A DNA stretch of 64,000 nt from Actinomycetota bacterium (GCA_012523095.1 JAAYJE010000022.1:4784-68783); one strand, 5' to 3'. Positions 8,249 through 38,421 are shown, counted from the first letter of the stretch. Translations and numbers: made by a program. Notes: generated by a model from the letters alone, not told the origin.

Positions 8249-8408
8249 CATGGCGACCGGTGGACCGACTCCACCCCTCCGCCCGTTCGCCGGGGAAAAA
8301 TACCATGTATCGACCAAGCCGTGTACCGACCACATGTACGAAGGGCTGTCCGGCGGTCTCCTCACCGCCACCGCGATGGCGCCCAGGCCTACGTGGCCGG
8401 CCGGCCCC

Positions 8409-9359
8409 TCAACCCCCCACAGCCGCGCGGACCATGTCCAAGGTCCCGGCGGAGCGCAACTTCTCGTTCTTGTGGGCTATGAATCCGGCGTATTCGGCCA
8501 TGAAGACCTTGCCGGGGTCGCGCAGGTCGAACTTCTCAGGGTTATCACGGAAGAACTCCCGATGGACCCGGGTCCACACCAGACGCCCGTCGGTGTCGAT
8601 GTTCACCTTGGTCACGCCCAGGGGGACCGCCTTCGCGAACTCCTCCTCATCCACACCCTTGGCGCCCTTGAGGGCCCCGCCGGCATCATTGATACGCCGG
8701 ACTTCCTCCTGAGGCACCGACGAGGATCCGTGCATCACCAGAGGGAACCCTGGGAGACGCTTCTGGATCTCCGCGACCACCTCGAGATGCAGCCCTTGAT
8801 GTCCGGTGAACTTGTAGGCTCCGTGGCTGGTGCCGATGGCGACCGCAAGACTGTCGCAGCCCGTTTCACGCACGAACACCTCGGCTTCGGCCGGGTCGGT
8901 GAGATGCGCGTTCTTCTCGTCCACCTGCACGTGCTCCTCCACCCCGCCCAACCGACCCAGTTCCGCCTCCACGGAGACGCCCCGAGCGTGGGCGGCCTCG
9001 ACCACCTGTCGCGTGATGCGGATGTTCTCCTCGAGGGGTTCCTGAGAAGCGTCGATCATCACCGACGAGTAGAACCCGCTCTCCACACAGTCGAGCGCCG
9101 TGTCAAGGTCGCCGTGGTCCAGATGAACGGCGAACACGGCCTCGGGGAACATCTCGTCGGCGGCCTTGATCATGGCCTCCAACATGCGCTTGTCGGCGTA
9201 GGACCGCGCGCCTTTGGAGATCTGGAGGATGAAGGGCGCCCGGGAGTCGAGATTGCCCCGGAACAGCCCCAAGGTCTGCTCCATGTTGTTGATGTTGTAG
9301 GCCCCCACGGCGAACCTGCCGTAGGCGACTTTGAAGAGCTCCTCAGTGGTGACGATCAT
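8409..9359 (-). CDS. fba: Fructose-bisphosphate aldolase class II
   Basis: 316 aa with class II FBA motifs (HLDHG, metal-binding His residues). Confidence 0.93.
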   Translation of the reverse strand: MIVTTEELFKVAYGRFAVGAYNINNMEQTLGLFRGNLDSRAPFILQISKGARSYADKRMLEAMIKAADEMFPEAVFAVHLDHGDLDTALDCVESGFYSSVMIDASQEPLEENIRITRQVVEAAHARGVSVEAELGRLGGVEEHVQVDEKNAHLTDPAEAEVFVRETGCDSLAVAIGTSHGAYKFTGHQGLHLEVVAEIQKRLPGFPLVMHGSSSVPQEEVRRINDAGGALKGAKGVDEEEFAKAVPLGVTKVNIDTDGRLVWTRVHREFFRDNPEKFDLRDPGKVFMAEYAGFIAHKNEKLRSAGTLDMVRAAVGG

Positions 9360-9639
9360 TTAGCGCTCCCATCAGTTCCGAACAGTATCATCCAGTCTTG
9401 GCGGCGCCCCAGTGGGCTCCGGCTTCCTCTTCCATCTTCCGGACGGTCGTAGCCGTATGGGCGCAGACCGCTCATGACGCTCCTCCTCTCGTCTCGAGAG
9501 CCCCCTGAGCGGACCCGGCCCCGGCGATCCGAGAAGCTTCATGCTATGTGCCTCCCATACCCCCAGACCGCTGCGTTGACACGCGCCGCGGAGTACGGAG
9601 GACCTCACGTTCAGCATACCAGGCTGGGGAGACGCCGGC

Positions 9640-11391
9640 GTGCTAGTCTGGGGTGCGGGAAAGGAGCGTTTTGTGGCTATGAAAGCGATGATCCCGGTGA
9701 CGGGCTACATACCGCGGGCGCGTTCACGACGCAATCTGATCATCCTCGCGGCTTACGTGGTCTTCCTCGTCATCGTGGTATTGATCTACGCATGGGTGTT
9801 CCGTTACATGATGGCCGAGTACGAGAACGACCCCGGCCACACGTTCATCAACGGCATCTACTGGACCATAACCACGATGACCACCCTCGGATACGGGGAT
9901 ATCACCTTCACCTCCCCCGCCGGTCAGCTCTTCTCAGCGTTCGTGACGCTTTCGGGCTTCCTGTTCATCCTGATCCTGGTGCCCTTCGCGATCGTGAGCG
10001 TGATCTTCGGCCCCTGGCTGGAGAGCGTCCTACGGTACCGTCCTCGCATGAGACTCAAGCGGGGCGCCAAAGGCCACGTCGTGATCTGCGGCTGGGACTC
10101 AGTCACGGAAGCGCTCACGAAGAACCTGGTCGGGGCGGGTGTGCCCTATGTGGTGCTCATGCCCGATGTGGACGAGGTGCGCCGTCTTGATGAGGCGCGG
10201 ATCAATACGGCGTTGGGGACCCCCACCGACGCCGAAGCCCTGAAAAGGGTCCGGGTGGAAAACGCCAGGATGGTCGTCGGCAACATGAGCGACCCGGACA
10301 ACACCAACCTGGTGCTCACCGTCGCTTCGATATGCCCCACCCCCGTGACCGCTGTGGTCACCGAGCCCGAAAGGAAGGAGTTGCTGGCCATTGCCGGGGC
10401 CGCCCATGTCGTGCCTCTCAGAGAGACATTGGGCAACCACCTGGCGGTGCGGGCCACCACTCAAGGGGCCATGAGCCACGTGGTCGACGTCCTAGGCGAC
10501 CTTCTCTTCGCCGAGATGCCCTCCCACGGTACTCCGTTCGTCGGTCAGCCGCTCAAGGCGACGGGCATACGCACAAGCACCGGCGTATCCGTGATAGGGA
10601 TCTGGGAGCGGGGCCGCTTCTCCCTACCGGAAGCCGAGACCATCATCTCAGATGGGATGGTCATGCTGTTGGTGGGCACTGAGTCGAATCTGCGGGCCCT
10701 GGAGCAGATCACGGGAGAGCGCGCGGCGGACGATCTGGTGATCATCCTCGGATACGGTGCTGTTGGTAGAGCGGCGGCGGCGCTCCTGAAGCGCAGAGAC
10801 GTCCCCTATGTGATCGTTGACCGAGATATCTCGGAGGCGGCCGGCGGGCCGCACTTCTTCTTGGGAGACGCCAGCAAGCGAGATGTGCTCGAACGGGCGG
10901 GCATCACACAGGCCAAGGGCCTGATTGTCACCACCAACGACGACGGCACCAACGTGTTCCTCACCTTGGCCGGAAGGCACCTGAACCCCCACATCCGCAT
11001 AGTCGCCCGGGCCAACCGGGAGGAGAACGTAGAAGAGCTGTACGCCGCCGGGGCCGACTTCATCGTCTCGCACTCCTCCGTCGGGGCGAGCATCCTCTCG
11101 AACATCGTCCAGGGCAGGCAGAATGTGTTTCTAGCAGAGGGGATCCGCATCTTCTCAAGCCGGGTGCCCGACGCCCTGCACGGACGGACCCTTGCCGATT
11201 CGGGCGTGCGGGATCTCACCGGGGCCACCGTCGTGGCCATCCAGCTGGACCGCGACCGGATCGTGCTCGACCTGACCCCCGACACCGTCCTGGATCGCTC
11301 GACTTCACTCATCCTGGTCGGCGCCCCCGACTCGGAGGCGCTATTCTCAAAACGATTCGGCGAACGTAACAAACCCTGGAGAACCGCCTGA
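9640..11391 (+). CDS. Potassium channel (2TM pore with TLGYGD selectivity filter) fused to two TrkA-N/RCK domains
   Basis: TTMTTLGYGD filter, followed by two Rossmann-like RCK domains (GxGxxG-like VICGWD and ILGYGAVG). The start is uncertain: alternatives are GTG 9673 and ATG 9679 downstream of a GGAAAGGAG RBS. Confidence 0.8.
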   Translation: MLVWGAGKERFVAMKAMIPVTGYIPRARSRRNLIILAAYVVFLVIVVLIYAWVFRYMMAEYENDPGHTFINGIYWTITTMTTLGYGDITFTSPAGQLFSAFVTLSGFLFILILVPFAIVSVIFGPWLESVLRYRPRMRLKRGAKGHVVICGWDSVTEALTKNLVGAGVPYVVLMPDVDEVRRLDEARINTALGTPTDAEALKRVRVENARMVVGNMSDPDNTNLVLTVASICPTPVTAVVTEPERKELLAIAGAAHVVPLRETLGNHLAVRATTQGAMSHVVDVLGDLLFAEMPSHGTPFVGQPLKATGIRTSTGVSVIGIWERGRFSLPEAETIISDGMVMLLVGTESNLRALEQITGERAADDLVIILGYGAVGRAAAALLKRRDVPYVIVDRDISEAAGGPHFFLGDASKRDVLERAGITQAKGLIVTTNDDGTNVFLTLAGRHLNPHIRIVARANREENVEELYAAGADFIVSHSSVGASILSNIVQGRQNVFLAEGIRIFSSRVPDALHGRTLADSGVRDLTGATVVAIQLDRDRIVLDLTPDTVLDRSTSLILVGAPDSEALFSKRFGERNKPWRTA

Positions 11392-14830: not shown

Positions 14831-16234
14831 ATGCAGGAGGAATCGCGACGCGCGCGCAGCGTGCGGCGCGCTCACAGGCGTCGGCGCATCATCGCCGGCG
14901 GTGTCTTCGCCATAATGGTCTTGAGCGCCGCCGGCTACGTCGTGCACGCGTCGACGACCGGAGATGATCCAACCGCCGACGGCACTGAAGCCGGCGGTTC
15001 CAACTTCAACTCGACCACGAGAGGCGATACGCCCGCCCTCACCGTCCCGGATACGTCCCCGGCGGGCAGCGCGGGCCCGACCACCACCAACGAAGCTGCA
15101 GCCTTTTCCGGGGCCATCGACTCGCCCCCCCAGGAACTCACCATCACGGGCAACCCCGAGTTCATCAAGCTCAAGATCACCCTGCAGGACGGTACCGTCT
15201 TGACGGGGAAAACACCTTTCGCGGAGCAGGTCCCAGGAGGCAACATCCATGTCGAGTTCACCAAGGCAGGCTACAACACCACGAGTCGAGACCTGACCCT
15301 CGACGGACCTACTACTCTGAAGGTCTGGCTGGATCTGGAAGGACAGCTCTACGAGAGCCTGGTCCGCTTCAAGTGCGGAGCCAACCCCAAACAGGTGGCC
15401 TTCACTCCCGACGGCGAGGAATTGTGGGTCTCCCTGTTGGGAGGCTACGGACTCGAGGTCTACGAGCCGACCACAGGCGTGAGGTTGGGTGGAGTCAAGC
15501 TTGGTGAGCACGGTGCGGTGGAGGTCGTCTTCACCCGTGACGGACGAACCGTCTACGCCAGCCAGATGGAGACCGCCGCCGTCTACGAGATAGATCGGGC
15601 CACCCGCGCCATCAAACGCAAGTTCGACACCGGCGGTGACTGGACCAAGGTGGTCCTGTTGTCTCCGGACGAGAAGACCCTGTGGGCCTCCAACTGGGTG
15701 AGCAACAACGTCTCCGAGATCGACCTCGCCACGGGCAAGGCGGCTACGCTCTTAAGGACGGGAGGGGCCATGAGACATATGGTGGACGATGCCGCTCGAG
15801 GCCTGCTCTACGTGGACGACATGTCTACCGACGAGGTGTACGTAGTGGACCTCGACACCGACAAGGCCTCTAAGTTGGCCGACACCGACCGGCGGCCCAA
15901 CACCATGGACCTATCTCCCGACGGCCTACTGCTCTACGTATCCAACCGGGGCAAGGACAACCCCAAGACCTACTACCTCCCCGGCCCCGAATGGGGCACC
16001 GTCCTCGCTCTCGATACGGCCACGGGCAGGATCCTCGACGCCATCGTGGGCCGCAACCAGTGCACAGGGCTGGACGTGTCGCCCGACGGCTCCCTCTTGG
16101 CCTTTTCGAACTTCCTCGACAACCACATCGAGGTCTTCCGCATCCCCAGTTACGAGACCCTGCTGGCCGGCGGCGGCGGCCGGGCCGAGCAGCGCTTTGA
16201 GGATCGCGTCAAGGACCAACACGTCCTCCGTTAA
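14831..16234 (+). CDS. Membrane-anchored YVTN-family beta-propeller repeat protein with S/T/P-rich linker
   Basis: The start was set at MQEESRR. It has an Arg-rich cytoplasmic N-terminus, one TM helix, a Thr/Pro/Ser-rich linker, then repeated beta-propeller blades (LSPDG, VSPDG motifs). Confidence 0.65.
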   Translation: MQEESRRARSVRRAHRRRRIIAGGVFAIMVLSAAGYVVHASTTGDDPTADGTEAGGSNFNSTTRGDTPALTVPDTSPAGSAGPTTTNEAAAFSGAIDSPPQELTITGNPEFIKLKITLQDGTVLTGKTPFAEQVPGGNIHVEFTKAGYNTTSRDLTLDGPTTLKVWLDLEGQLYESLVRFKCGANPKQVAFTPDGEELWVSLLGGYGLEVYEPTTGVRLGGVKLGEHGAVEVVFTRDGRTVYASQMETAAVYEIDRATRAIKRKFDTGGDWTKVVLLSPDEKTLWASNWVSNNVSEIDLATGKAATLLRTGGAMRHMVDDAARGLLYVDDMSTDEVYVVDLDTDKASKLADTDRRPNTMDLSPDGLLLYVSNRGKDNPKTYYLPGPEWGTVLALDTATGRILDAIVGRNQCTGLDVSPDGSLLAFSNFLDNHIEVFRIPSYETLLAGGGGRAEQRFEDRVKDQHVLR

Positions 16235-16243
16235 CGCCCTCCG

Positions 16244-17893
16244 TCAGCTCAGCGGTATCTGGTACCCGCGGTCGAGCAGTCTCGACCTCACGGTCTCGTA
16301 AGGGACCTCGCTCAATCCGACACCCAGCTCAGCGGCCGTGATCACCATCATGGCGGCCGCTGCGCCCATGTTCGCCCTGCAGTGCTCCATGCGCACCGCG
16401 GAACAGTATGCAGCACTGTCGGTGGAGACTGCCGTCGACACCAGAAGGGCCGGGTGGCCGGCGGCTATCAGAGCCTCCATGGGCATATAGACGTAGCGCG
16501 TCGTCTCGATATGGGTGGGGTAGAAGGCGTCATGCCGGTCGTACTCGCAATAACAACCCACGGCGACCGGCTGACGGAGTGCCACGGAGCGAAGATCGTC
16601 CACTGTGTAGGTGTCGAGACCAACCACCCTGGGACCTTCGCGCACATACAACTTCTGCGGGATGGTGGCGACCCCCACCCGTGCGTATCCATTCTCCTGC
16701 AGGTATCGGGCCCGGTTGATCGTCCACTGCAACACCTGCTTGCGTATGTCGCCTCGCTTGTCGGGCTCGAACACCCACTGGAAGGCCCAGCCGATATCCG
16801 GATGGTCACTCCACGACTCGTTCAGTTCCCGCTTGTTCTTAGGAAGAACGGCGATCTTCATAGTCCAGCTGTTCGCGAAAGCGGCGACGTTCTTCGCGGC
16901 GAAGGTGGTGCCCGCGAACGAAGCCGGGTCGTAGTTGGGGTGTCGGAGATCGGCGACACGGGCCGCCTTTCCGGAGGAATACACCTGGAGCGTCAGCAAA
17001 GCTGAGAAGCGCTGAGGAGCGGTGACCCACCCGTTGTCCGAGCTCGGATAGGCAGGTCTGTTGCCCAGAACGTCATTGTAGACGTCCTCAGCGCGTCCGA
17101 TACGATAGTCGGCGCCCAGCATGCGGGCTAGGTCGGCTTCCACGCTGGCGTCGATGAAGTACTTGGTTCTCAGTCGTAGATCGCCGGCCCCCTCCACGCT
17201 GATGTCCACGTAACGGCCGTCGGACCCGTCATGCGCGTCCAGCAGCTTGGCCGAGTAGAATTGCACGTTGGGCAGGTTTGAGCCGGAGACGTAAGACCAC
17301 AGGATCTTCGCCGCCACTTCAGGCTCGTAAGTGAAGCGGCCGGTGCCGTTGGCCGCCTTCAGGCCGTGCAGAGAGTAGTAGCGCATCACCGTCTGGCGCC
17401 ATTCGCCGTAGAAACCGCCCGTGACGTGGCCGGCGTTCCGCACATCCTCCACGCTCAGACCCTGCGCCAGCGGAGTCTCCAGGAGATTGCCGCACGATAT
17501 AAGGGCCACCCGCAGCTGGGGCGCCCCCAGCGCCATTTCGCGCACCGCCGCCAGGCCGGAGGTCTGAGTGGCGTAGACCACCACATCAACATCGACGATA
17601 GGAAGTGCCTTCCCCACGCCGGCGGGATCGGGATCGACCTCGGCGACAGAGGCATCCGTGCCTCCTCCAGCCGTTTCGTGGGCAGCAGCCGAGACTCCTG
17701 TAGGAGCCCCGTTCGCCTTCGCCTGGACGGGAGAAGGATCATCCGCAGACACAGGACCGACGAGAGCCTGAGCTGAGAGGCCTAGAAGAGCATCGGATCT
17801 AGCCAAGGCCTCGGACTTAGAAGAGACCAGAGGCACCATCACTAGACAGAGAACGAGACCCGCCACTATCACCAGACCCAGGCGGCGGACCAT
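16244..17893 (-). CDS. Secreted/membrane-anchored FAD-dependent-oxidoreductase-like protein (PF12831-like) with degenerate dinucleotide-binding motif
   Basis: ORF 16244..17962, with the start MVRRLG preferred. It has an N-terminal signal/TM and an Ala/Pro-rich linker. DVDVVVYATQTSGLAAV sits where GxGxxG is expected. Confidence 0.6.
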   Translation of the reverse strand: MVRRLGLVIVAGLVLCLVMVPLVSSKSEALARSDALLGLSAQALVGPVSADDPSPVQAKANGAPTGVSAAAHETAGGGTDASVAEVDPDPAGVGKALPIVDVDVVVYATQTSGLAAVREMALGAPQLRVALISCGNLLETPLAQGLSVEDVRNAGHVTGGFYGEWRQTVMRYYSLHGLKAANGTGRFTYEPEVAAKILWSYVSGSNLPNVQFYSAKLLDAHDGSDGRYVDISVEGAGDLRLRTKYFIDASVEADLARMLGADYRIGRAEDVYNDVLGNRPAYPSSDNGWVTAPQRFSALLTLQVYSSGKAARVADLRHPNYDPASFAGTTFAAKNVAAFANSWTMKIAVLPKNKRELNESWSDHPDIGWAFQWVFEPDKRGDIRKQVLQWTINRARYLQENGYARVGVATIPQKLYVREGPRVVGLDTYTVDDLRSVALRQPVAVGCYCEYDRHDAFYPTHIETTRYVYMPMEALIAAGHPALLVSTAVSTDSAAYCSAVRMEHCRANMGAAAAMMVITAAELGVGLSEVPYETVRSRLLDRGYQIPLS

Positions 17894-17924
17894 CCCGCCC
17901 TCGCCTTGGCCTAGGCGGGCTATT

Positions 17925-18389
17925 TTAGATACGACCTTCCTCACGCAGCCTCCTAGAGTCATTCAATACGGTGGCCGCGTGCCCCTTGGCGCCCACCCGT
18001 TGATAGGCTAACAGAACGTCTCCGTCCTTGCCGACGAGGACGGTATCACGCTCATGTGAACTCTCAGGTCCGCCCTTCAGCGTTCCGAAGGCCTGCCCGA
18101 TCGCCCTGTCTCGGTCGCTTACGAATGGGAACCGCAGATCGTATTTGTCCCGGAACTTCTGCAACCGGGCCACCGAGTCTACCGAAGCGCCGACTATCCT
18201 CACCCCCAGTGTCTCGAACTCCGGCACCAATCGGTTGAACTCAACCGCTTCCACTGTTCACCCCGGGGTCAGTGCCCGAGGAAAGAAGTACAGCACTACC
18301 GGTCCCGATTCGAGCAGTGCCCCGAGATCGACGTCACCGTCACTTCCGGACGCTACAAACAGCGGCGCTTTGTCACCTACCGCCAGCAT
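17925..18389 (-). CDS. BCP/PrxQ-type peroxiredoxin with in-frame TGA (candidate selenocysteine) at the peroxidatic Cys position
   Basis: ATG at 18389 (RBS GGAGGTG 6 nt upstream) encodes MLAVGDKAPLFVASG...VVLYFFPRALTPG. An in-frame TGA follows at 18260..18258, then TVEAVEFNRL... through to the stop at 17925. The ORF track shows only the part after the TGA (17925..18254). In Cys homologues this position is the catalytic C of the FYPKDDTPGC motif. Total 154 codons. Confidence 0.6.
18229..18250 (-). ncRNA. Candidate bacterial SECIS hairpin within the peroxiredoxin coding region
   Basis: mRNA AAGCGGUUGAGUUCAACCGAUU starts 8-11 nt after the UGA. The CGGUUGA/UCAACCG stem has a GU-containing apical loop, matching the spacing (about 11 nt) and loop features of E. 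coli fdhF-type SECIS elements. Confidence 0.4.
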
Positions 18390-18405
18390 CACTGCACCTC
18401 CTCGG

Positions 18406-18711
18406 TCACGCCTCTCTCCTACGCGGCTCAATAGGTCCGTGGATGCTCTCGTACTTCCTCAGGTTATCCGCCAGCGCCTCGACGATGTGCTTCATGTGAG
18501 CGGGGCCGGTCACCACCCGCGCGACCACCTGTCCACCCGGGCCCATGACCATGGCGAAGTCCATCACGAACTCACCGGCCGTATGATGGACCATCATGGT
18601 GTTGCAGTAGACGCCCCCTGCTATCGTCTCGGGTACCCGCAGCTTCAGTTCGCGCTGCTTGCGACCGCCGCCGCCGTTCCCCGGCGTCCTCTGCGGGTTC
18701 GTCGTCGCCAT
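18406..18711 (-). CDS. DUF3467-family protein (function unknown)
   Basis: 101 aa with the GGVY.N...EFVMDF pattern typical of DUF3467. An AGGAGGAGG RBS precedes it. Its stop is 16 nt upstream of the peroxiredoxin ATG. Confidence 0.6.
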   Translation of the reverse strand: MATTNPQRTPGNGGGGRKQRELKLRVPETIAGGVYCNTMMVHHTAGEFVMDFAMVMGPGGQVVARVVTGPAHMKHIVEALADNLRKYESIHGPIEPRRREA

Positions 18712-18731
18712 GATCCTCCTCCTAACCGGCG

Positions 18732-18747
18732 CCGGGAGGTCTCCCGG
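18732..18747. promoter_or_regulatory. Perfect 16-bp palindrome CCGGGAGGTCTCCCGG in the leader of the DUF3467-peroxiredoxin operon
   Basis: Seen directly in the sequence, ~20 bp upstream of the DUF3467 start codon. It is a candidate operator or RNA hairpin. Confidence 0.4.
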
Positions 18748-18863
18748 AACACGTACCGGCGTTCTTCGACGTCAGACTGTCGACATCCCTAACAAGTATT
18801 GGCTGCCATGGGGTCCTGGTCCTGCCTCAGGGATCGAACATTCGGACGGTCCACAGCGATACA

Positions 18864-20321
18864 TCAATCTTCTCCCCGAGCCCGCGCGAAGCGACGCGCC
18901 CCATCCGCCACCGTCAGCCGTACCCGTCCGGTCAGGGTCTCGCCCAAGAACGCGCAGTTGCGACTCTTGCCCCTCAGCGTCTCGGGCGCTACCCGCCACC
19001 GTTCCTCGAGGTCGACGACGCAGAAGTCGGCGGGAGCCCCCTCTTCCAAGCGGGGCTCAGCGAGCCCCAAGACCCTGCAGGGCGCTCCCGACATAGCCTC
19101 CACGAGCCGCTCCAAGGACAGCTGCCCCGTCAGGACCAAACCGGTGTGGAGCGCAGCAAAAGCCGTCTCCAGCCCGGTCGTGCCGAAGAGGGCGTCCTCG
19201 ATGGGCACCTCCTTCTCCTGTGGAGCATGAGGAGCGTGGTCGGTACCGATACAGTCGACGGTCCCGTCGGCAAGGGCCGCCACCAGGGCGGCACGGTCCT
19301 CGGCGGAACGAATGGGCGGGTTGACCTTCAGGTTCTGGTCGAAACCTGTCAGCAGCTCGTCGGTCAACAGAAGGTGGTGAGGGGTGGCCTCGACGGTGAT
19401 GGGAAGCCCCTCCGCTTTCGCCTGCCGGACCAGCCTCACGCTGGCGGCTGCAGACAGGTGCTGGAAGTGTATGAGAGGCACCGCGGCCGCCGGAGGGCCG
19501 CTCGAGACGGCGCCGCCACCCGAAGCCGCGGCGACACCCGCAACCACACCGCCCCTCGTACCCCCCTGCCGCTTCTGCTCCGCATCGACGTAACGGACGA
19601 TCTCCAAGTCGCGGGCCAACGGGCCCGACTCGCAGGCGGCGGGCACTCCCCGCAAACCCAGTCGCGCGCTCCACCTGCCCTCGTGCATGACCCCGTCGAC
19701 AGACAGGCTCCTGTTCTCCAGATGGATCAGTAACGGTCGTCCGATCCCGCGAGTGTAACGTAACGCCTGAAGCAATAGATCCGCATCGGCGATAGGCCTG
19801 CCGTCGTCGGAGAAGGCGACCACTCCGGCGTCCGCCAGTTCGCGTATCTCGGCCAGCTCTTCACCTTTGAGACCCCTGCTCACGGCCCCCACCTGGCCCA
19901 CCCGGACCACGGCCTCCCTGGCCGCTTCGTCCAGGATCCAGGCGGCCACCGGGCCACAGTCCGCCACAGGATCAGTGTTGGCCATGGCCACCACCGCCAC
20001 GTAACCACCCGCCGCAGCGGCAAGCGGACCCGAAGTCAGATCCTCCTTGTATTCATGACCGGGCGTACGCAGATGGGCATGAGGGTCGACAAACCCAGGA
20101 AAAACCCAACAGCCGGCCAGGTCATCGAGTATCTCCACTTTCTCGGGCGCTCTCAACGCGTCGCCCCACCCAGCGATCTTGCCCTCTTCCACGAGTAGAT
20201 CTCCCACGAGGTCGACACCGTGTTGGGGATCGAACAGATGCACGGAAGGAATGACGAAAGTCTCGGGGGGCGCCGCCCGGCAGGTGAGCTTGGGCGCGGA
20301 AGGACGCGTGCTGGTGTCCAT
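18864..20321 (-). CDS. pyrC: Dihydroorotase
   Basis: Metal-binding DPHAHLR and DHAPH motifs. The start was set at MDTSTRP, after an AAAGGA RBS. It contains a Gly/Ala-rich insertion. Confidence 0.88.
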   Translation of the reverse strand: MDTSTRPSAPKLTCRAAPPETFVIPSVHLFDPQHGVDLVGDLLVEEGKIAGWGDALRAPEKVEILDDLAGCWVFPGFVDPHAHLRTPGHEYKEDLTSGPLAAAAGGYVAVVAMANTDPVADCGPVAAWILDEAAREAVVRVGQVGAVSRGLKGEELAEIRELADAGVVAFSDDGRPIADADLLLQALRYTRGIGRPLLIHLENRSLSVDGVMHEGRWSARLGLRGVPAACESGPLARDLEIVRYVDAEQKRQGGTRGGVVAGVAAASGGGAVSSGPPAAAVPLIHFQHLSAAASVRLVRQAKAEGLPITVEATPHHLLLTDELLTGFDQNLKVNPPIRSAEDRAALVAALADGTVDCIGTDHAPHAPQEKEVPIEDALFGTTGLETAFAALHTGLVLTGQLSLERLVEAMSGAPCRVLGLAEPRLEEGAPADFCVVDLEERWRVAPETLRGKSRNCAFLGETLTGRVRLTVADGARRFARARGED

Positions 20322-20363
20322 CCAAATTCCTTTCGGTCTCACGGGACTCGTTTAAAGGTCGAC

Positions 20364-21176
20364 CTATGTTATCGCGGAAGGATGAGCGGGTCCAGTCGGC
20401 TCGTGATCGAGCCACGTAGGCACATCCGTCCAGGCGACCCGCAGGAGTCTCCTATGAATGCGGCACTCGGGATCATGGTAACCAAGCAGGGTCCAGAAGC
20501 GCGGCGAGTGGTTCATCTCCACGGTATGGCAGAGCTCATGGAGCAGCACGTGCTCGACCACGTCCGGTGATAAGAAGAGGAGTCTCGCGTTCAAGGATAT
20601 GGTGTTATGCTGAGAACAACTCGCCCACCGGGAATGCTGGCGCCGTATCGAGATCCTGCCGTACGCTAAACGGTGCTTCAGAGCGAGCTCCTCGAGCCAG
20701 GGGACCAATGCCCGCCTCGCCCTGCGGCTTAACCAGCGACAGAGCGCGTCTCGGCAAGAATCGAAGTCGTCCGGATCGCCGGTCACGACAAGCCGCTCGC
20801 CGGAACGTTCCCGCACGACTGAGGCGGCCGCTTTGGGCGACGATGCCGCGCGCTTCGTCCGCGAGCGATACTCTACCTGCCACTCCTCGCCCACGGCCGG
20901 TAGAACGATCCACTCCGGCAACCGCGGGGGGTCCGCCTCCAGCCGGCGTCGCCGGGCATCGGTCCGATCCTTGATCCGCGCTGAAGCCCGCTCGATCCAC
21001 GCCCTCTTGCTCTCGAGCAGCCCGGGTATCTTACGCCGGTCGAAACGCCGGGGCACCACCACCTCCAGCCCTCCGTCCTCGCTCAACACCAGCCGCACAC
21101 GACGCGCCCGAGCGCTCTCCCGGACGGAATAGCCGGGGAGTGTCCCACGGGACGGTTCCAGGATGTCGCGGCCCAA
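20364..21176 (-). CDS. M48-family zinc metallopeptidase (YgjP/DUF45-like)
   Basis: HELCHTVEMNHS matches the HExxH...N/H zinc motif of YgjP-like proteins. 270 aa. Confidence 0.7.
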   Translation of the reverse strand: MGRDILEPSRGTLPGYSVRESARARRVRLVLSEDGGLEVVVPRRFDRRKIPGLLESKRAWIERASARIKDRTDARRRRLEADPPRLPEWIVLPAVGEEWQVEYRSRTKRAASSPKAAASVVRERSGERLVVTGDPDDFDSCRDALCRWLSRRARRALVPWLEELALKHRLAYGRISIRRQHSRWASCSQHNTISLNARLLFLSPDVVEHVLLHELCHTVEMNHSPRFWTLLGYHDPECRIHRRLLRVAWTDVPTWLDHEPTGPAHPSAIT

Positions 21177-21240
21177 GTGGGAGCTACCTCATCAACCGCG
21201 CGTCCGGTGTGATCTCGGGCGCCTGGGCGACGTCATACGT

Positions 21241-24200
21241 CTATCGCCCGTCTCCCGAACCATTCGCGAGGTCCTCGTCCTGCATGTCCCTCCCGGCCGG
21301 CAGGTTCAGGCCGGCGCTCTGACCGGTCACGTCGCGGGCGCCGGTGGCCGCCAGAGCCTCCTCGTCCACCACGCCGGGTTCGAACGGACAAGCTTCGGAG
21401 TAGACCATCTCCGCCTGCTGTTTGAGGACCTGCCACCGGGTACACACATGCCTCTGGGCCTTATCCCACAGCATGGACGCCGCTTCCGGATAGGCCTTCT
21501 TCAGCATGTTGTAGCGGTTCTCCGTGGGCACGAAATCGGCCACCGGCAGCATCGGTTCCTTAGAATCGATCTGCAGAGGGTTCTTGCCCTGAGTCGCCAA
21601 GCGGGGGTCGAACCGATAGCAGATCCACGAACCCGATTCCACAGCCAGCTTCTGCTGCTCGTAGCCCTTGCTCATGTCGATGCCCATGTTGATGCAGTGG
21701 CTGTAGGCGATGATGAGGCTGGGACCGTCGTAAGACTCAGCCTCCACGAATGCCCGCACAGTCTGCGAGTCGCTGTAGCCCATCGCCACCTGGGCCACGT
21801 AGATATTGCCGTAGGTCATGGCGATGGAGCCCAGGTCTTTCTTCCCGATGGTCTTGCCTCCGGCGGCGAACAGGGCCACCGAGCCCATCGGGGTGGCCTT
21901 GGACATCTGCCCCCCTGTGTTCGAATACATCTGGGTGTTCAGCACCAGCAGGTTGATGTTCCGTTGTGAAGCAAGGACGTGGTCCAGACCTCCGTAGCCT
22001 ATGTCGAAGGCCCAACCGTCGCCTCCCACCCCCCAGACGCTCTTCTTGACCAGGTGATCGGCCACTCCCAGCAACTGACCGTACCGATAGTCAGACCCAT
22101 CGTTCGCCAGAGCGTCCTGAAGCTTGGCCTTCACCTCGGCCACCCGGGTCCGTTGAGCAGCGATCTCGGCCTCGTCCTCCTGCTTGGACGACAGTAGCGC
22201 AGCCGCCAGGTCGGTTCCTATGATGTCGCGGAGCGAATCCACCAGCTCCCGGGCGAACTCCGCGTGTTTGTCCACAGTCAAGCGGAGGCCGTAACTGAAC
22301 TCCGCCGCGTCTTCGAACAGGGAGTTGTTCCATGTGGGCCCCCGGCCGTCTTCGTTGACGGAGTATGGAGTGGTGGGCAGATTACCCCCGTAGATGCTCG
22401 AACACCCGGTCGCATTGCCTATGAGCAGCCGATCGCCCACCAGCTGCGTGAGGAGCTTGATGTACGGGGTCTCGCCGCAGCCGGCGCAGGCCCCCGAGTA
22501 CTCGAAGAGCGGCCTCAGCAGCTGACTACCCTTGACGGTGTTCACACGCACGTCGGACCGGTCCGGGTCGGGTATGGTGAGGAAGAAGCGGTAGTTCTCC
22601 CGCTCCTGGCCGCGCAGTGGCGGCTGGAAGGCCATGTTGATGGCCCTCCGCTGCGGATCGGCCTTGTCTTTGCCGGGACAGATGTTGACGCACTCGGCGC
22701 AACCCGTGCAGTCCTCGGGCGCCACCTGGACCGTCCACTTCTTGCCCGCATGCTCCCTGCCCTTGGCGTCTACCGACTTGAAGGTAAGCGGGGCGCCCTC
22801 GAGGGTGTCCGCGGTATAGATCTTGGTGCGAATACTGGCGTGCGGACAGTGCAGCGAGCACTTGCCGCACTGTATGCAGAGTCCCGGCTCCCACACCGGG
22901 ATCTCGAGAGCGATGTTGCGCTTCTCCCACTTGGTCGTATCGACGGGCCAGACCCCGTCCTCGGGGATCTCGCTCACGGCCAGCTTGTCCCCGTCTCCCG
23001 CCATGATCCACGCAGTCACGTGTTGAACGAATCCGGGCGCTTCGCGAGGCACCAACCTCGGCTTCCGCTGGGTGCTGGAGACCGCGGCGGGCACGGTTAT
23101 CTCGTGCAGGTTGGCGAGAGACTGGTCGACGGCCATGTAGTTCATCGCCACGACTTTGTCGCCGCGCTTGCCGTAGGTCTTATTGATGGCGGCCTTGATG
23201 GCGGCGACGGCCTCATCCGGCGGGATGATGTTGGAGAGGTAGAAGAAGCAGGTCTGCATGATGGTGTTGATACGACCACCCATGCCGGTCTGCTTCGCCA
23301 CCTCATAGGCATTGATGGCATACACTTTCAAGCCGAGGTCGATGATCCGCTCTTGAGTCTCCATGGGCAGTCGGTCCCAGACCTCGTCCGCCGGGAAGGG
23401 AGCGTTGAGGAGGAAGGTGCCCCCGGGCGTCGCCGCCGAGAGGGTCTTGTAGCGCTCCAAGAACGCCCACACATGGCAGGCGATGAAGTCGGCCTTGTCC
23501 ACCAGGTACGCAGAGCGGATGGGCTGGGGACTGAGGCGTAGATGGCTCACGGTAAGGACTCCGGCTTTCTTGGAGTCGTATACGAAATAACCCTGCACGT
23601 AGTTGTCGGTGTCGTCGCCGATGATCTTGATGGAGTTCTTGTTGGCCCCCACGGTGCCGTCGCTGCCGAGACCGTAGAACAGAGCCCGGTAAACGCCGGC
23701 GGATTCGGTGGTGAAGGCCGAGTCGTACTCGAGACTGGTGTGAGTGACGTCATCGTTGATGCCGACGGTGAAGTGGTTCTTCGGCTCCGGCTTGGCCAGC
23801 TCGTCGAACACAGCCTTGACCATGGCCGGGGTGAACTCCTTGCTGGAGAGGCCGTAACGACCTCCGATGACCTTGGCCTTGAGGCCCGTCTCAGCCAGAG
23901 CGTTCACCACGTCAAGGTAGAGCGGTTCGCCCGCCGACCCCGGCTCCTTGGTGCGATCGAGCACCGCAAGTGTCCTCACCGTCTCTGGGAGGGCCGCCGC
24001 GAAATGCTCGACGCTGAAAGGCCGGTATAAGCGGACTTTCAGCACTCCCACCTTCTCCCCCCGGGCCGCCAGATGCTCGACGGTCTCGTGGGCCGTCTCC
24101 GCGCCCGAACCCATGAGCACGATCACACGTTCGGCGTCGGGGGCGCCGACGTAGTCGAAGAGGTGGTAACTCCGTCCGGTGAGCTTCGCGAACCGGTCCA

Positions 24201-24939
24201 TATACTCCTGCACCACCCCCGGGCAGGCGAGATAGAAGCGGTTGACGGTCTCGCGGCCCTGGAAGTACACGTCCGGGTTCTGGCTGGTGCCCCGCAGAGT
24301 AGGACGGTCGGGGGTCATGGCCCGCTCCCGGACGGCAAGCACGTATTCCTCGTCGATCATGGCCCGGAGTACATCGTCGGCCATGAATTCGAACTTCTGA
24401 ACCTCGTGGGAGGTGCGAAAGCCGTCGCAGAAGTGGATGAAGGGGACCCTCGACTTGAGTGTGGCGGCGGTGCCCACCAAAGCGAGATCGTGGGCCTCCT
24501 GCACGGAGTTCGACGCCAGGAGCGCGAACCCGGTCTGCCTCACCGCCATAACGTCTTGATGGTCGCCGAAGATGCTGAGCGCCTGCGCAGCGATGGATCG
24601 GGCCGTCACGTGCCAGCAGGTGGGGGTCAGCTCGCCGGCGATCTTATACATGGTGGGGATCATGAGTAGGAGCCCCTGGCTGGCGGTGAAGGTGGTACTG
24701 AGCGAACCGGCCTGGAGCGCTCCGTGCACGGCCGCCGCGGCTCCTCCCTCCGATTGCATCTCCACCACCACCGGCACCGACCCCCACAGATTAGGCCTAC
24801 CCGAGGCGCTCCACGCGTCGGCGTGTTCAGCGATCGGGCTGGACGGGGTGATCGGGTAGATGGCGATCACCTCGTTGATCTTGTGGGCCACGTGGGCAAT
24901 AGCTTCGGTGCCGTCCATCACTGCCGTGTTGCTTCTCAT
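21241..24939 (-). CDS. nifJ: Pyruvate:ferredoxin (flavodoxin) oxidoreductase
   Basis: 1232 aa single-chain PFOR. It has the N-terminal AIYPITPSS motif, two 4Fe-4S ferredoxin CxxCxxCxxxCP motifs, and a TPP-binding GDG region. Confidence 0.95.
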   Translation of the reverse strand: MRSNTAVMDGTEAIAHVAHKINEVIAIYPITPSSPIAEHADAWSASGRPNLWGSVPVVVEMQSEGGAAAAVHGALQAGSLSTTFTASQGLLLMIPTMYKIAGELTPTCWHVTARSIAAQALSIFGDHQDVMAVRQTGFALLASNSVQEAHDLALVGTAATLKSRVPFIHFCDGFRTSHEVQKFEFMADDVLRAMIDEEYVLAVRERAMTPDRPTLRGTSQNPDVYFQGRETVNRFYLACPGVVQEYMDRFAKLTGRSYHLFDYVGAPDAERVIVLMGSGAETAHETVEHLAARGEKVGVLKVRLYRPFSVEHFAAALPETVRTLAVLDRTKEPGSAGEPLYLDVVNALAETGLKAKVIGGRYGLSSKEFTPAMVKAVFDELAKPEPKNHFTVGINDDVTHTSLEYDSAFTTESAGVYRALFYGLGSDGTVGANKNSIKIIGDDTDNYVQGYFVYDSKKAGVLTVSHLRLSPQPIRSAYLVDKADFIACHVWAFLERYKTLSAATPGGTFLLNAPFPADEVWDRLPMETQERIIDLGLKVYAINAYEVAKQTGMGGRINTIMQTCFFYLSNIIPPDEAVAAIKAAINKTYGKRGDKVVAMNYMAVDQSLANLHEITVPAAVSSTQRKPRLVPREAPGFVQHVTAWIMAGDGDKLAVSEIPEDGVWPVDTTKWEKRNIALEIPVWEPGLCIQCGKCSLHCPHASIRTKIYTADTLEGAPLTFKSVDAKGREHAGKKWTVQVAPEDCTGCAECVNICPGKDKADPQRRAINMAFQPPLRGQERENYRFFLTIPDPDRSDVRVNTVKGSQLLRPLFEYSGACAGCGETPYIKLLTQLVGDRLLIGNATGCSSIYGGNLPTTPYSVNEDGRGPTWNNSLFEDAAEFSYGLRLTVDKHAEFARELVDSLRDIIGTDLAAALLSSKQEDEAEIAAQRTRVAEVKAKLQDALANDGSDYRYGQLLGVADHLVKKSVWGVGGDGWAFDIGYGGLDHVLASQRNINLLVLNTQMYSNTGGQMSKATPMGSVALFAAGGKTIGKKDLGSIAMTYGNIYVAQVAMGYSDSQTVRAFVEAESYDGPSLIIAYSHCINMGIDMSKGYEQQKLAVESGSWICYRFDPRLATQGKNPLQIDSKEPMLPVADFVPTENRYNMLKKAYPEAASMLWDKAQRHVCTRWQVLKQQAEMVYSEACPFEPGVVDEEALAATGARDVTGQSAGLNLPAGRDMQDEDLANGSGDGR

Positions 24940-25023: not shown

Positions 25024-25944
25024 CTACCCGGTGGGCTCCTCGCTCAAGCTTCCCGCCAGACACTGGTACAGGATGGCCATGCGTACGGCCAAGCCCGACT
25101 CCACCTGATGCAGGATCAAGGAGCGGTCGTCATCGGCCAGGTCGGCTGAGAGCTCCACCCCCCGGTTGATGGGTCCCGGATGCATAACGCGCTGCCCGGC
25201 CTTGACCCTGTACGGTGACAGTCCCCAGACCCTGCTGTATTCCCGTAGCGAGGGCACCGGCGGCACCTTGCCTTTGGCCCGTTCGAGTTGCATGCGCAGG
25301 AGGTATATAACGTCGACGTCCTCTAGGGCGTCGAGATCATGGTGGATGGGCGCACCCCAGTATTCGATTCCCGGAGGCATCAGGGTCGGCGGGCCCACGA
25401 GACTCACTTCGATACCCATCTTGCGGAATCCGAAGAGGTCGGAGCGGGCTACGCGACTGCGGAGCACGTCTCCCACGATGGCCACCCTGAGACCCTCGAA
25501 CTCACCGTACACCCGCCGCAGGCTGTACAGGTCGAGCAGGCACTGCGTGGGGTGCTCCCCAGTCCCATCACCCGCGTTGACCACCGAGGCGTCCGTATAC
25601 CGTGTGGCCATGCGCGACGCCCCCACCCGAGGGTGGCGCATGACCATGATGTCGGGACGATAGCTCTCGAGCGTGAGGATGGTGTCCTTGAGGCTTTCCC
25701 CTTTGGAAACGCTGGACGACGACTCCTTGATGTTGATCACGTCGGCGGAGAGCCGTTTCCCGGCCAGTTCAAACGACGATTGCGTACGAGTGGACGGCTC
25801 CATGAAGACGTTCACTATGGTGCGCCCGCGGAGAGTAGGGACCTTCTTGATGGAGCGAGAGGCGACCTCGAGGAAGCCGTCGCTCAGCCTGAAGAGATTG
25901 TCGATGTCGGCTGCGGTGAGATCGTCAATGGAGATCAAGTGCAT
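25024..25944 (-). CDS. pyrB: Aspartate carbamoyltransferase catalytic subunit
   Basis: STRTR carbamoyl-phosphate binding motif and HPGP..R motif. 306 aa. Confidence 0.95.
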   Translation of the reverse strand: MHLISIDDLTAADIDNLFRLSDGFLEVASRSIKKVPTLRGRTIVNVFMEPSTRTQSSFELAGKRLSADVINIKESSSSVSKGESLKDTILTLESYRPDIMVMRHPRVGASRMATRYTDASVVNAGDGTGEHPTQCLLDLYSLRRVYGEFEGLRVAIVGDVLRSRVARSDLFGFRKMGIEVSLVGPPTLMPPGIEYWGAPIHHDLDALEDVDVIYLLRMQLERAKGKVPPVPSLREYSRVWGLSPYRVKAGQRVMHPGPINRGVELSADLADDDRSLILHQVESGLAVRMAILYQCLAGSLSEEPTG

Positions 25945-26053: not shown

Positions 26054-26632
26054 TTACTCTTCGATGGTGACCTCATCCACCCCGTTTGCCTCCTTCAGAT
26101 GCACCACCACCCGTTCGCTGCGGCTGGTGGGGACATTCTTTCCCACGAAGTCAGGTCTGATGGGCAGGTCGCGATGCCCCCGGTCGACCAGCACCGCCAA
26201 CCGCACCGCCTGCGGACGGCCGTAGTCGAAGAGAGCGTCGATGGCCGCCCGGATGGTGCGCCCTGTGTAGAGCACGTCGTCAATCAGCACCACGACCTTC
26301 TCGTTGATGTCGAAAGGCAGATCGGTGGTACGGACCTTAGGCTGCCCATATTCCCTGCCCAGACGGATGTCAAGGTCATCGCGGTAGAAGGTGATGTCGA
26401 CGGCGCCCTTCGGGGGCTTGATGGAATAGAAGGTATCGAACAGCTCGGCCAGGCGGGCCGCCAACTCCACTCCCCCACTCTGGATGCCGACCAGCACCAC
26501 AGAGGCCAGGTCGGGAGCATACTCAGCGATCTCGTGGGTCATGCGGGCGAGCGTCCGCCCGATCTGCGCCTCGTCCAAGAGGACTTTGCGCTTACGCCTC
26601 TCGTCGCTGCTCCTGTTCGCCACGGCGCTCAC
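26054..26632 (-). CDS. pyrR: Bifunctional pyrimidine operon regulator / uracil phosphoribosyltransferase PyrR
   Basis: 192 aa with the PRPP-binding VVLIDDVLYTGRT motif. Its start overlaps the tal stop by 4 nt. Confidence 0.9.
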   Translation of the reverse strand: MSAVANRSSDERRKRKVLLDEAQIGRTLARMTHEIAEYAPDLASVVLVGIQSGGVELAARLAELFDTFYSIKPPKGAVDITFYRDDLDIRLGREYGQPKVRTTDLPFDINEKVVVLIDDVLYTGRTIRAAIDALFDYGRPQAVRLAVLVDRGHRDLPIRPDFVGKNVPTSRSERVVVHLKEANGVDEVTIEE

Positions 26633-37647: not shown

Positions 37648-38421
37648 TCATTTCGCTTTCACCGCCAGTTTGTCCGCCACCGTGGCATCCACATACTCAA
37701 GCGGCGTCCCATCCCTCAAGTATTGCTCGATGATCTGCAAAGCGCCCTTCAACTTCTGGTCGAGCTTCGTCGGGTCGCCGAGCCGCAGTTCGGCACCTTC
37801 TTTCAACACGATGGTGAGCGCGCCGGATGGGGATACCCAGATCTCCTTCGCGGACGCCAGATGTCTGTTGGCGCTCTCATCCGCCATGATGACCGCCAGG
37901 GGAAGCGCCTGCGCAACGATCTCAGAGACTTGCTGCCCGGCGACAGGGGTCTCGTCCGTCGATGGCACGACCAGGGGCAGACCCGCCCCTGCAGGCGGAA
38001 CGACCACCTCGAGCGCGCGACCGTTATCGGCCACCACCCAGACGGCGCCGTCGCCGGCTTTGAGGCGGGCGATCGGTTCATACTCTTCCAAACGCACGTC
38101 CAAGGTGTTAGGGAAGCGACGGTAAACCTCGGCCGAGCGCACATAGGGCAGCGAGCGCAGGGCTTCTTCAAGATCCGCCGTCGATAGACGGAACAGGCTT
38201 TCTCCGATAGCTTCCGACGCTACCCGAGACACTTCTTCCTGAGCGATACGCTCCGTGGCGGTGGCCGTGACCGTCCGCACGGCAAAGACATCGGAGGAAC
38301 GCAACCAGACGAACAGGACCGCGGCCGCCACCAGAAGGCCGAAAACGAAGACCAGACCCGCGCGTCGCCTGCCGCGCTGCCGGCCCACCGCTCGGCGTCG
38401 GTCGCGGATCCGACTATTCAT
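37648..38421 (-). CDS. ftsQ: Cell division protein FtsQ/DivIB (POTRA domain)
   Basis: Single TM followed by POTRA-like domain. The start was set at MNSRIRD. Synteny places it between murB and ftsZ. Confidence 0.7.
   Translation of the reverse strand: MNSRIRDRRRAVGRQRGRRRAGLVFVFGLLVAAAVLFVWLRSSDVFAVRTVTATATERIAQEEVSRVASEAIGESLFRLSTADLEEALRSLPYVRSAEVYRRFPNTLDVRLEEYEPIARLKAGDGAVWVVADNGRALEVVVPPAGAGLPLVVPSTDETPVAGQQVSEIVAQALPLAVIMADESANRHLASAKEIWVSPSGALTIVLKEGAELRLGDPTKLDQKLKGALQIIEQYLRDGTPLEYVDATVADKLAVKAK

Follow-up and report, generated by a model that had tools for sequence, protein, structure and literature searches.

A probable selenocysteine-containing BCP/PrxQ-type peroxiredoxin, annotated as a truncated gene, in an uncultured Gaiellales/Thermoleophilia-like actinobacterium

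The DNA analysed here is a single stretch of 64,000 nt, referred to below as the window. It contains a peroxiredoxin gene, prx, whose reading frame is interrupted by a single TGA. The features of prx and of its two adjoining genes are listed below in the order in which they are read on the minus strand.

18406..18711, minus strand: gene for a DUF3467 protein of 101 aa (Pfam PF11950, E = 2.7e-18); its TGA stop is followed after 16 nt by the prx ATG
18397..18403, minus strand: Shine-Dalgarno sequence GAGGAGG, with a 7-nt spacer to the prx ATG, as read from the sequence
17925..18389, minus strand: predicted Sec-peroxiredoxin coding sequence, 43 codons, UGA (Sec44) and 110 codons, then TAA
18267..18281, minus strand: codons for Pro37...Thr41 of the motif P-x-x-x-T-x-x-U; Pro37 and Thr41 are invariant in 18/18 Sec-form orthologues
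18258..18260, minus strand: in-frame UGA, putatively read as Sec (U44), in the PxxxTxxU motif at the place of the peroxidatic residue
18232..18247, minus strand: SECIS-like hairpin with stem 18247..18242 CGGUUG / 18237..18232 CAACCG and loop AGUU (18241..18238)
18048..18050, minus strand: codon for Arg114, the active-site arginine of the HERDT motif, invariant in two alignments (A1 and A3)
16244..17893, minus strand: gene for a FAD-dependent oxidoreductase of 549 aa (PF12831, Pfam E = 4e-36); the start is taken from the JGI gene call

The mechanical ORF call at this locus covers only 17925..18254, a product of 109 aa from a GTG start two codons past the TGA. The sequence-only reading had regarded this ORF as a fragment without the peroxidatic residue and had pointed to an upstream ATG at 18389 in the same frame, preceded by a ribosome-binding site. 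Both observations hold: the called ORF begins past the TGA, and GAGGAGG, 7 nt and the ATG (18389..18387) follow one another on the minus strand. Between this ATG and the TGA lie 43 sense codons, which end in ...VVLYFFPRALTPG. The residues after the TGA are TVEAVEFNRL..., the start of a run of 110 codons closed by a TAA stop at 17927..17925, and translation with the TGA read through yields a full-length product of 154 aa. With Cys set at the TGA, the Pfam family AhpC-TSA (PF00578) matched residues 4-125 over positions 1-121 of the 124 in the model (E = 4.4e-27). Since the matched domain spans the TGA, the peroxiredoxin domain is complete only if the TGA is decoded. We conclude that prx is a real gene, encoding a small enzyme predicted to detoxify peroxides, that has been annotated as truncated.

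By subfamily prx is BCP-like, but it does not qualify as an equivalog of the E. coli enzyme. The best NCBIfam match was PRK09437 (NF006960, BCP; E = 2.4e-22), at 79.5 bits compared with an equivalog cutoff of 140, while the score against the PrxU model NF040737 was 27.5 bits, below the equivalog cutoff of 270. The best matches in the PDB were also BCPs (5enu, 5iph and 3gkk; E ~1e-22), with the TGA aligned to the catalytic Cys. Pro37...Thr41 aligned with the ‘PKDxTPGCT’ motif of the solved BCPs, the TxxU motif of prx being T41-P-G-U44, and Arg114 aligned with the ERST/IRST arginine of these structures. The 154-aa protein contains no Cys residue at all. The +5 position is occupied by Val49, and from the alignment with the solved BCPs the equivalent of the Xanthomonas resolving Cys is presumably Arg80. 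The resolving cysteine that characterizes the atypical 2-Cys BCP/PrxQ enzymes, at CP+5 or, in Xanthomonas BCP, in helix alpha3, is absent, and a protein with no Cys anywhere would have to work as a ‘1-Sec’ peroxiredoxin.

We compared prx with its relatives in protein and nucleotide collections. The homologue search was run with Cys substituted at the TGA position, and the closest 120 clusters were considered. Most of these are stored as fragments of 85-111 aa that start just past the catalytic residue. When the DNA of three such fragment entries was examined, each showed 43 codons, TGA, a Thr codon and the remainder, the same architecture as in the window. A minority of close relatives are full-length proteins of 154 aa (62-74% identity) with Cys at the TGA column, in the context ...FFPRAxTxGCTxEA.... 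The earlier claim that the single TGA sits exactly where Cys homologues carry the catalytic residue was thus borne out, and the alignment of the 154-aa protein with Cys homologues that had been proposed as a check places the TGA in the catalytic Cys column. Cys occupies this column in P0001-P0014 (P0013 excepted), L011, L023, 5enu and 5iph. The exception, P0013, is a 154-aa homologue (63% identity) on a 1286-bp JGI contig with Trp at the catalytic position (TSGWTVEA). It differs by a one-base change from TGA to TGG, which may reflect an error in sequencing or a copy that has been inactivated or put to another use.

With alignment A3 as the query, a scan of the GTDB in which each species was represented by one genome gave 29 loci. 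TGA was found at the catalytic codon in 25 of the 29 (26/30 with the window), the other four having TGC or TGT. In the actinobacterial subfamily to which prx itself belongs, TGA was present in 23/25 GTDB loci; two Terriglobia homologues with 38-39% identity were also among the TGA loci. In JGI/ENA metagenome contigs, 39 of the 44 scorable prx loci had TGA and five had Cys codons. Neither TAA nor TAG was found at the catalytic codon in the 29 GTDB-species loci or the 44 metagenome loci. Altogether, the orthologues with the same architecture amount to 60+ loci. Stops at varying positions in relatives, which the sequence-only reading had named as a sign of a pseudogene, were not what we found; dozens of loci carry this same TGA. 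In three Nanopore-derived MAGs (L015, L028 and L029; MFD isolates) prx, at ~10001-10465 in each, is frameshifted downstream of the TGA. These frameshifts are most likely homopolymer indel errors of assembly and not pseudogenes.

A short hairpin follows the TGA. Its core consists of 5 bp (GGUUG-AGUU-CAACC; the window stem has 6 bp) and begins 11 nt past the UGA. As established in work on E. coli, a bacterial SECIS has its upper stem ~11 nt past the UGA, 16 nt from UGA to loop and a small apical loop that contains G-U; the geometry of the prx hairpin appears to fit this rule. The core stem was fully paired in 24/24 aligned Sec forms, with no broken pair, and compensatory changes on both sides were seen in 7 cells of the comparison, distributed over three core pairs. 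None of 500 column shuffles reached the observed covariation score, sliding the 3′ arm abolished the pairing, and the AGUU loop was invariant in the aligned Sec forms. All five core pairs were present in 41/41 actinobacterial Sec forms, compared with 5, 4, 3 and 2 in the actinobacterial Cys forms; no hairpin was found by folding in the Cys forms L023 and L032. The variant stems include GCCAUCG/CGAUGGC (L014), GCCGUUG/CAACGGC (L018, L019 and L029), GGUCG/CGACC (L013 and L066), GCCAUUG/CAAUGGC (L049) and GCCGUCG/CGACGGU (L061). Some of them force coupled residue changes, in which Val49/Asn52 become Ile/Asp or Val/Asp. The DNA just 3′ of the UGA is almost invariant, synonymous positions included, and Val49 is encoded by GTT in 16 of 18 sequences while the other Val codons of prx favour GTG or GTC.

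Folding of the extended stems gave −27.7 kcal/mol (z = −3.3) for L014 and −24.4 kcal/mol (z = −2.0) for L019. The window hairpin folded alone did not exceed shuffled sequence in stability (z = −0.10), so that its significance rests entirely on comparative data; we therefore rejected single-sequence thermodynamics as evidence for the hairpin and used covariation instead. In the Terriglobia homologues the hairpin is another one, CCAGUUC...GAACUGG, and lies 18 nt past the UGA. No Rfam family matched the window at gathering thresholds; Rfam is not known to hold a general bacterial SECIS model. When the window was searched for other sites combining a TGA, a spacer and a hairpin with an NGUN loop, only the prx site and one antisense site at 38240 were obtained. 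The latter, on the plus strand, has CGUGGC-GGUG-GCCGUG after an 11-nt spacer in an open frame, and lies antisense to well-supported minus-strand genes. It was rejected as a second selenoprotein because such sites occurred at chance frequency in shuffles. A GC3-based scan of the window for read-through TGA codons was too noisy to use, its matches being adjacent same-frame genes or antisense frames.

We also searched for the genes of the Sec-decoding machinery. Rubrobacter, also a deep lineage of Actinobacteria, possesses SelA/B/D together with five selenoproteins (PMC1794560). A tblastn search with the SelA/B/D proteins of E. coli and Rubrobacter detected no selA, selB or selD in the window or in ~0.94 Mb of DNA flanking related loci, and no selC/tRNA-Sec of the actinobacterial clade was found in the window or in these flanks. 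ARAGORN found no tRNA genes in the window. The 10 kb beyond each window end, which extends the coverage around prx to ~84 kb, likewise yielded no sel genes. In a protein search with Rubrobacter SelB the best 120 matches were all from Rubrobacteraceae (identity >=67%), and a search at the 50%-representative level gave 150 clusters. Ranking of these clusters by amino-acid composition and lookup of their members returned one taxon name, Chloroflexota. Two candidate SelB contigs for the clade were discarded, their neighbouring genes (sigma-54 activator, sulfatases) being non-actinobacterial. A tRNA-Sec(UCA) gene was found ~7.7 kb upstream of the TGA-containing prx in two Terriglobia contigs that are independent of each other (L030, 1505..1599, plus strand; L076, 2237..2331, plus strand). 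Because it was present near prx in both contigs, the genome of the Acidobacteriota homologue has selC, and the linkage is conserved. This linkage and the SelA/B/D of Rubrobacter lend indirect support to a Sec reading of the UGA.

A UGA of this kind might be recoded as Cys and not Sec, through the same hairpin and SelB but with a Cys-charged tRNA that resembles tRNA-Sec. Mukai and colleagues reportedly found such a tRNA, charged with Cys, in some bacteria. The conserved TGA, the hairpin and the selection on the frame would suit any SelB/SECIS-dependent insertion equally well, and SelA and SelD were not found in the window or the related flanks. However, positive evidence for Cys recoding is nil. 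Switches between Sec and Cys accompanied by decay of the hairpin are typical of true selenoproteins, the TxxU type of Prx/Bcp is a recognised Sec family, and a costly device for inserting a residue that TGC could encode would be hard to keep over so many species. We consider recoding as Cys to be very unlikely.

Much less probable still is the loss of prx function by a nonsense mutation at the catalytic codon, which would make prx a pseudogene or a gene in decay that yields either no product or only a 109-aa piece without catalytic activity. That gene callers report only fragments of 85-109 aa, and that the hairpin of the window taken by itself has no unusual stability, would agree with such decay. 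However, the identical TGA occurs in more than 60 loci with up to 40% protein divergence, and loci so divergent cannot be copies of a single sequence produced in assembly. Neither TAA nor TAG ever takes the place of the TGA, and the hairpin covaries. In 18 intact Sec-form orthologues, in which synonymous differences are near saturation (pS ~0.6), pN/pS was 0.318 for codons 1-43, upstream of the TGA, compared with 0.333 for codons 62-154. Equal values on either side indicate that both halves of prx are translated and equally constrained. A purine-rich GGAGG-like motif precedes the prx ATG in all orthologues. For the internal GTG at 18254 we saw no such ribosome-binding motif in the sequence, and at its position the orthologues mostly have non-start codons (GCG, ACG, CTC, ATC and others). 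With neither a ribosome-binding site nor conservation as a start, the internal GTG is a poor candidate for separate translation of a C-terminal fragment.

An error of sequencing or assembly, with TGC or TGT as the true codon, has an exceedingly small probability. It is a general possibility for any such codon, and the three Nanopore-derived MAGs mentioned above do contain frameshifts elsewhere in prx. However, an independent JGI assembly, Ga0239563_000313, is 100% identical to the window over 14925..21254 (6.3 kb compared), and the same TGA appears in both Illumina- and Nanopore-based assemblies from many studies. By its reported coordinates this JGI contig (72,555 bp) does not contain the whole window, which must derive from a different and longer assembly of the same organism. 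The identical independent assembly and the recurrence of the TGA together exclude a sequencing error as well as a private nonsense mutation; the TGC or TGT that the sequence-only reading had allowed for at this codon was not found. Equally negligible is a global reassignment of TGA to sense, or its read-through by near-cognate tRNA-Trp: the Trp-containing homologue P0013 would fit it, but TGA is the commonest stop in the window, where it closes 19 of 35 Pfam-supported genes, among them the one directly upstream of prx, and orthologous prx genes can themselves end in TGA (L001), so that the codon is an ordinary stop elsewhere and not globally reassigned, and with Trp as the peroxidatic residue the enzyme would be inactive and the conserved hairpin needless.

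We believe that the locus very probably encodes a BCP/PrxQ-type peroxiredoxin with selenocysteine at the peroxidatic position, a prediction from comparative sequence analysis. The conserved TGA, the equal selection on both sides of it, the covarying hairpin, the Cys homologues and the use of TGA as a normal stop elsewhere all support the selenoprotein reading proposed earlier. In the mechanism that we propose, the UGA at codon 44 would not be taken as a stop during translation. Instead, the mRNA hairpin 11 nt past the UGA would recruit SelB carrying Sec-tRNA(Sec), and Sec would be inserted; the dependence on SelB and tRNA-Sec is presumed. In the enzyme, Thr41 and Arg114 would activate the selenolate of Sec44 for attack on H2O2 or an organic hydroperoxide, and Sec44 would pass into a selenenic acid intermediate. 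This intermediate would probably be re-reduced directly by an external thiol, either a thioredoxin-like protein or a low-molecular-weight thiol.

The DUF3467 gene and prx are probably co-transcribed, because only 16 nt separate the stop of the former from the ATG of the latter. We know of no function for DUF3467. The FAD-dependent oxidoreductase gene starts 31 nt past the prx stop, and its product is a possible redox partner of prx. Both genes adjoin prx in about two thirds of the actinobacterial loci and both are absent from one subclade. Since this subclade keeps Sec-prx without either gene, neither product is an obligate partner, and the FAD-dependent oxidoreductase was accordingly rejected as an obligate reductase. 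The block formed by the three genes (16244..18711, minus strand) sits just downstream of pyrC(/carA). The three fragment loci share with the window the gene order PFOR, YgjP, dihydroorotase, (carA), DUF3467, prx and FAD-oxidoreductase. In the window the PFOR is a single-chain protein of 1232 aa (21241..24939, minus strand), encoded between pyrB (25024..25944)/pyrR (26054..26632) and YgjP/pyrC.

Further from prx, gene calls on contigs identical to the window place a fructose-bisphosphate aldolase at 8409..9359 (minus strand) and an Ion_trans_2/TrkA_N/TrkA_C potassium-channel protein at 9640..11391 (plus strand). The ORFs 8250..9452 and 9474..10190, both on the plus strand, had no Pfam matches and were dismissed as genes, the identical contigs being called otherwise. 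Contigs identical to the window are of anaerobic-digester origin (PRJNA283612, JGI 3300038805). This origin, together with the PFOR, points to an anaerobic lifestyle of the host. The nearest relatives are labelled as Gaiellales, Thermoleophilia or Actinomycetota MAGs. The host is an uncultured Gaiellales/Thermoleophilia-like actinobacterium of anaerobe type from anaerobic digesters.

In a neighbour-joining tree, which is indicative only because the protein is short, Cys forms fell in at least five separate places. P0001, P0002 and L011/P0003 were nested among Sec forms, while P0017 and L073 were basal. The scatter of the Cys forms suggests repeated interconversion of Sec and Cys in the prx subfamily. 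A broader joint reading is that Sec is ancestral and dominant (~85-90% of sampled members) in a peroxiredoxin subfamily that is confined to uncultured, anaerobic Gaiellales/Thermoleophilia-like Actinomycetota, is cysteine-free and of the ‘1-Sec’ type, and has reverted to Cys several times independently; we find the case for and against it evenly balanced. As part of the same reading, the SECIS stem embedded in the coding sequence may force the co-substitution of Val49/Asn52 by Ile/Asp, and the SECIS may decay stepwise in the revertants; on this too our judgement is divided in equal measure. If the joint reading is true, it would give the first indication of a Sec-decoding trait across the whole lineage, and would offer a compact natural series for the exchange of Sec and Cys. 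We found no paper in the searchable literature that links selenocysteine with Thermoleophilia or Gaiellales.

Current inferences of function or antioxidant capacity for these abundant actinobacteria of soil, sediment and digesters miss a predicted active peroxidase and a presumed need for selenium. The main practical value of the finding is to correct a systematic mis-annotation and to flag selenium dependence in an uncultured clade. It also extends an established selenoprotein family to a poorly known, uncultured and deep-branching actinobacterial lineage, in which Sec forms, recent Cys revertants and SECIS elements in decay can be compared in one clean series. What is understood of selenoproteins and peroxiredoxins is unchanged by it.

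The expectation that a BCP/PrxQ-type selenoprotein in an actinobacterium would be notable held only in part. The window prx is a new, lineage-specific member, but the BCP-type TxxU family is already catalogued and selenoproteins are known in Actinobacteria; because of that catalogue, the identification is correct but unsurprising, and it has little novelty. Prx (COG1225/Bcp, TxxU) has appeared in lists of bacterial selenoprotein families since 2004–2006. A 2006 catalogue (PMC1794560, supplement 4) includes BCP-type Sec-peroxiredoxins with a T(P/S)GU motif from Geobacter, Anaeromyxobacter, Syntrophobacter and Syntrophus, and in Table 1 of a 2022 review (PMC9312934) the family is treated as established, under the entry ‘Peroxiredoxin (Prx), COG1225 (Bcp), TxxU’. 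Few selenoprotein families of bacteria are as widespread as the Sec-peroxiredoxins, which are present in 78 organisms (Peng et al. 2016, PMC5029168), and Actinobacteria were already one of three selenoprotein-rich phyla.

The closest known counterparts of the window prx are the catalogued TxxU proteins of Geobacter metallireducens, Anaeromyxobacter dehalogenans (Prx_1), Syntrophobacter fumaroxidans and Syntrophus aciditrophicus, with 36-40% identity over the full length (E 4e-30 to 5e-22). They share with it the AhpC/TSA fold, the motif ...(Y/F)F(Y/F)PxxxT(P/S)GUTxEA... and a length of ~150-160 aa, and like it occur mainly in anaerobes. In contrast to them, the window prx belongs to a distinct subfamily (<=40% identity), has a 5-residue deletion in the loop past ‘GT’, and contains no cysteine. 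PrxU of Eubacterium (Peptoclostridium) acidaminophilum is the experimentally characterised Sec-peroxiredoxin, according to the citation of Sohling et al. 2001 in PMC9312934. As is predicted for the window prx, it has Sec in place of the peroxidatic Cys and its UGA is decoded via a bacterial SECIS. However, PrxU-like sequences have a ‘DFTFVU’ motif and a length of ~200 aa (PMC1794560 supplement), and belong to a different peroxiredoxin subfamily.

The Cys-type BCP/PrxQ enzymes, such as E. coli BCP and the proteins of Xanthomonas campestris (3gkk/5iiz) and Burkholderia (5enu), have the active-site Pro, Thr and Arg in common with prx, whereas prx would have Sec in place of Cys and has no resolving Cys at +5. 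The SECIS of E. coli fdhF, the model example among bacterial elements for Sec insertion, is a stem-loop directly 3′ of the UGA within the coding sequence, with the essential upper stem ~11 nt past the UGA and a G-U in the apical loop. The prx hairpin has the same placement as this element; it is much shorter (a stem of 5-8 bp and a 4-nt AGUU loop) and has no obvious bulged U.
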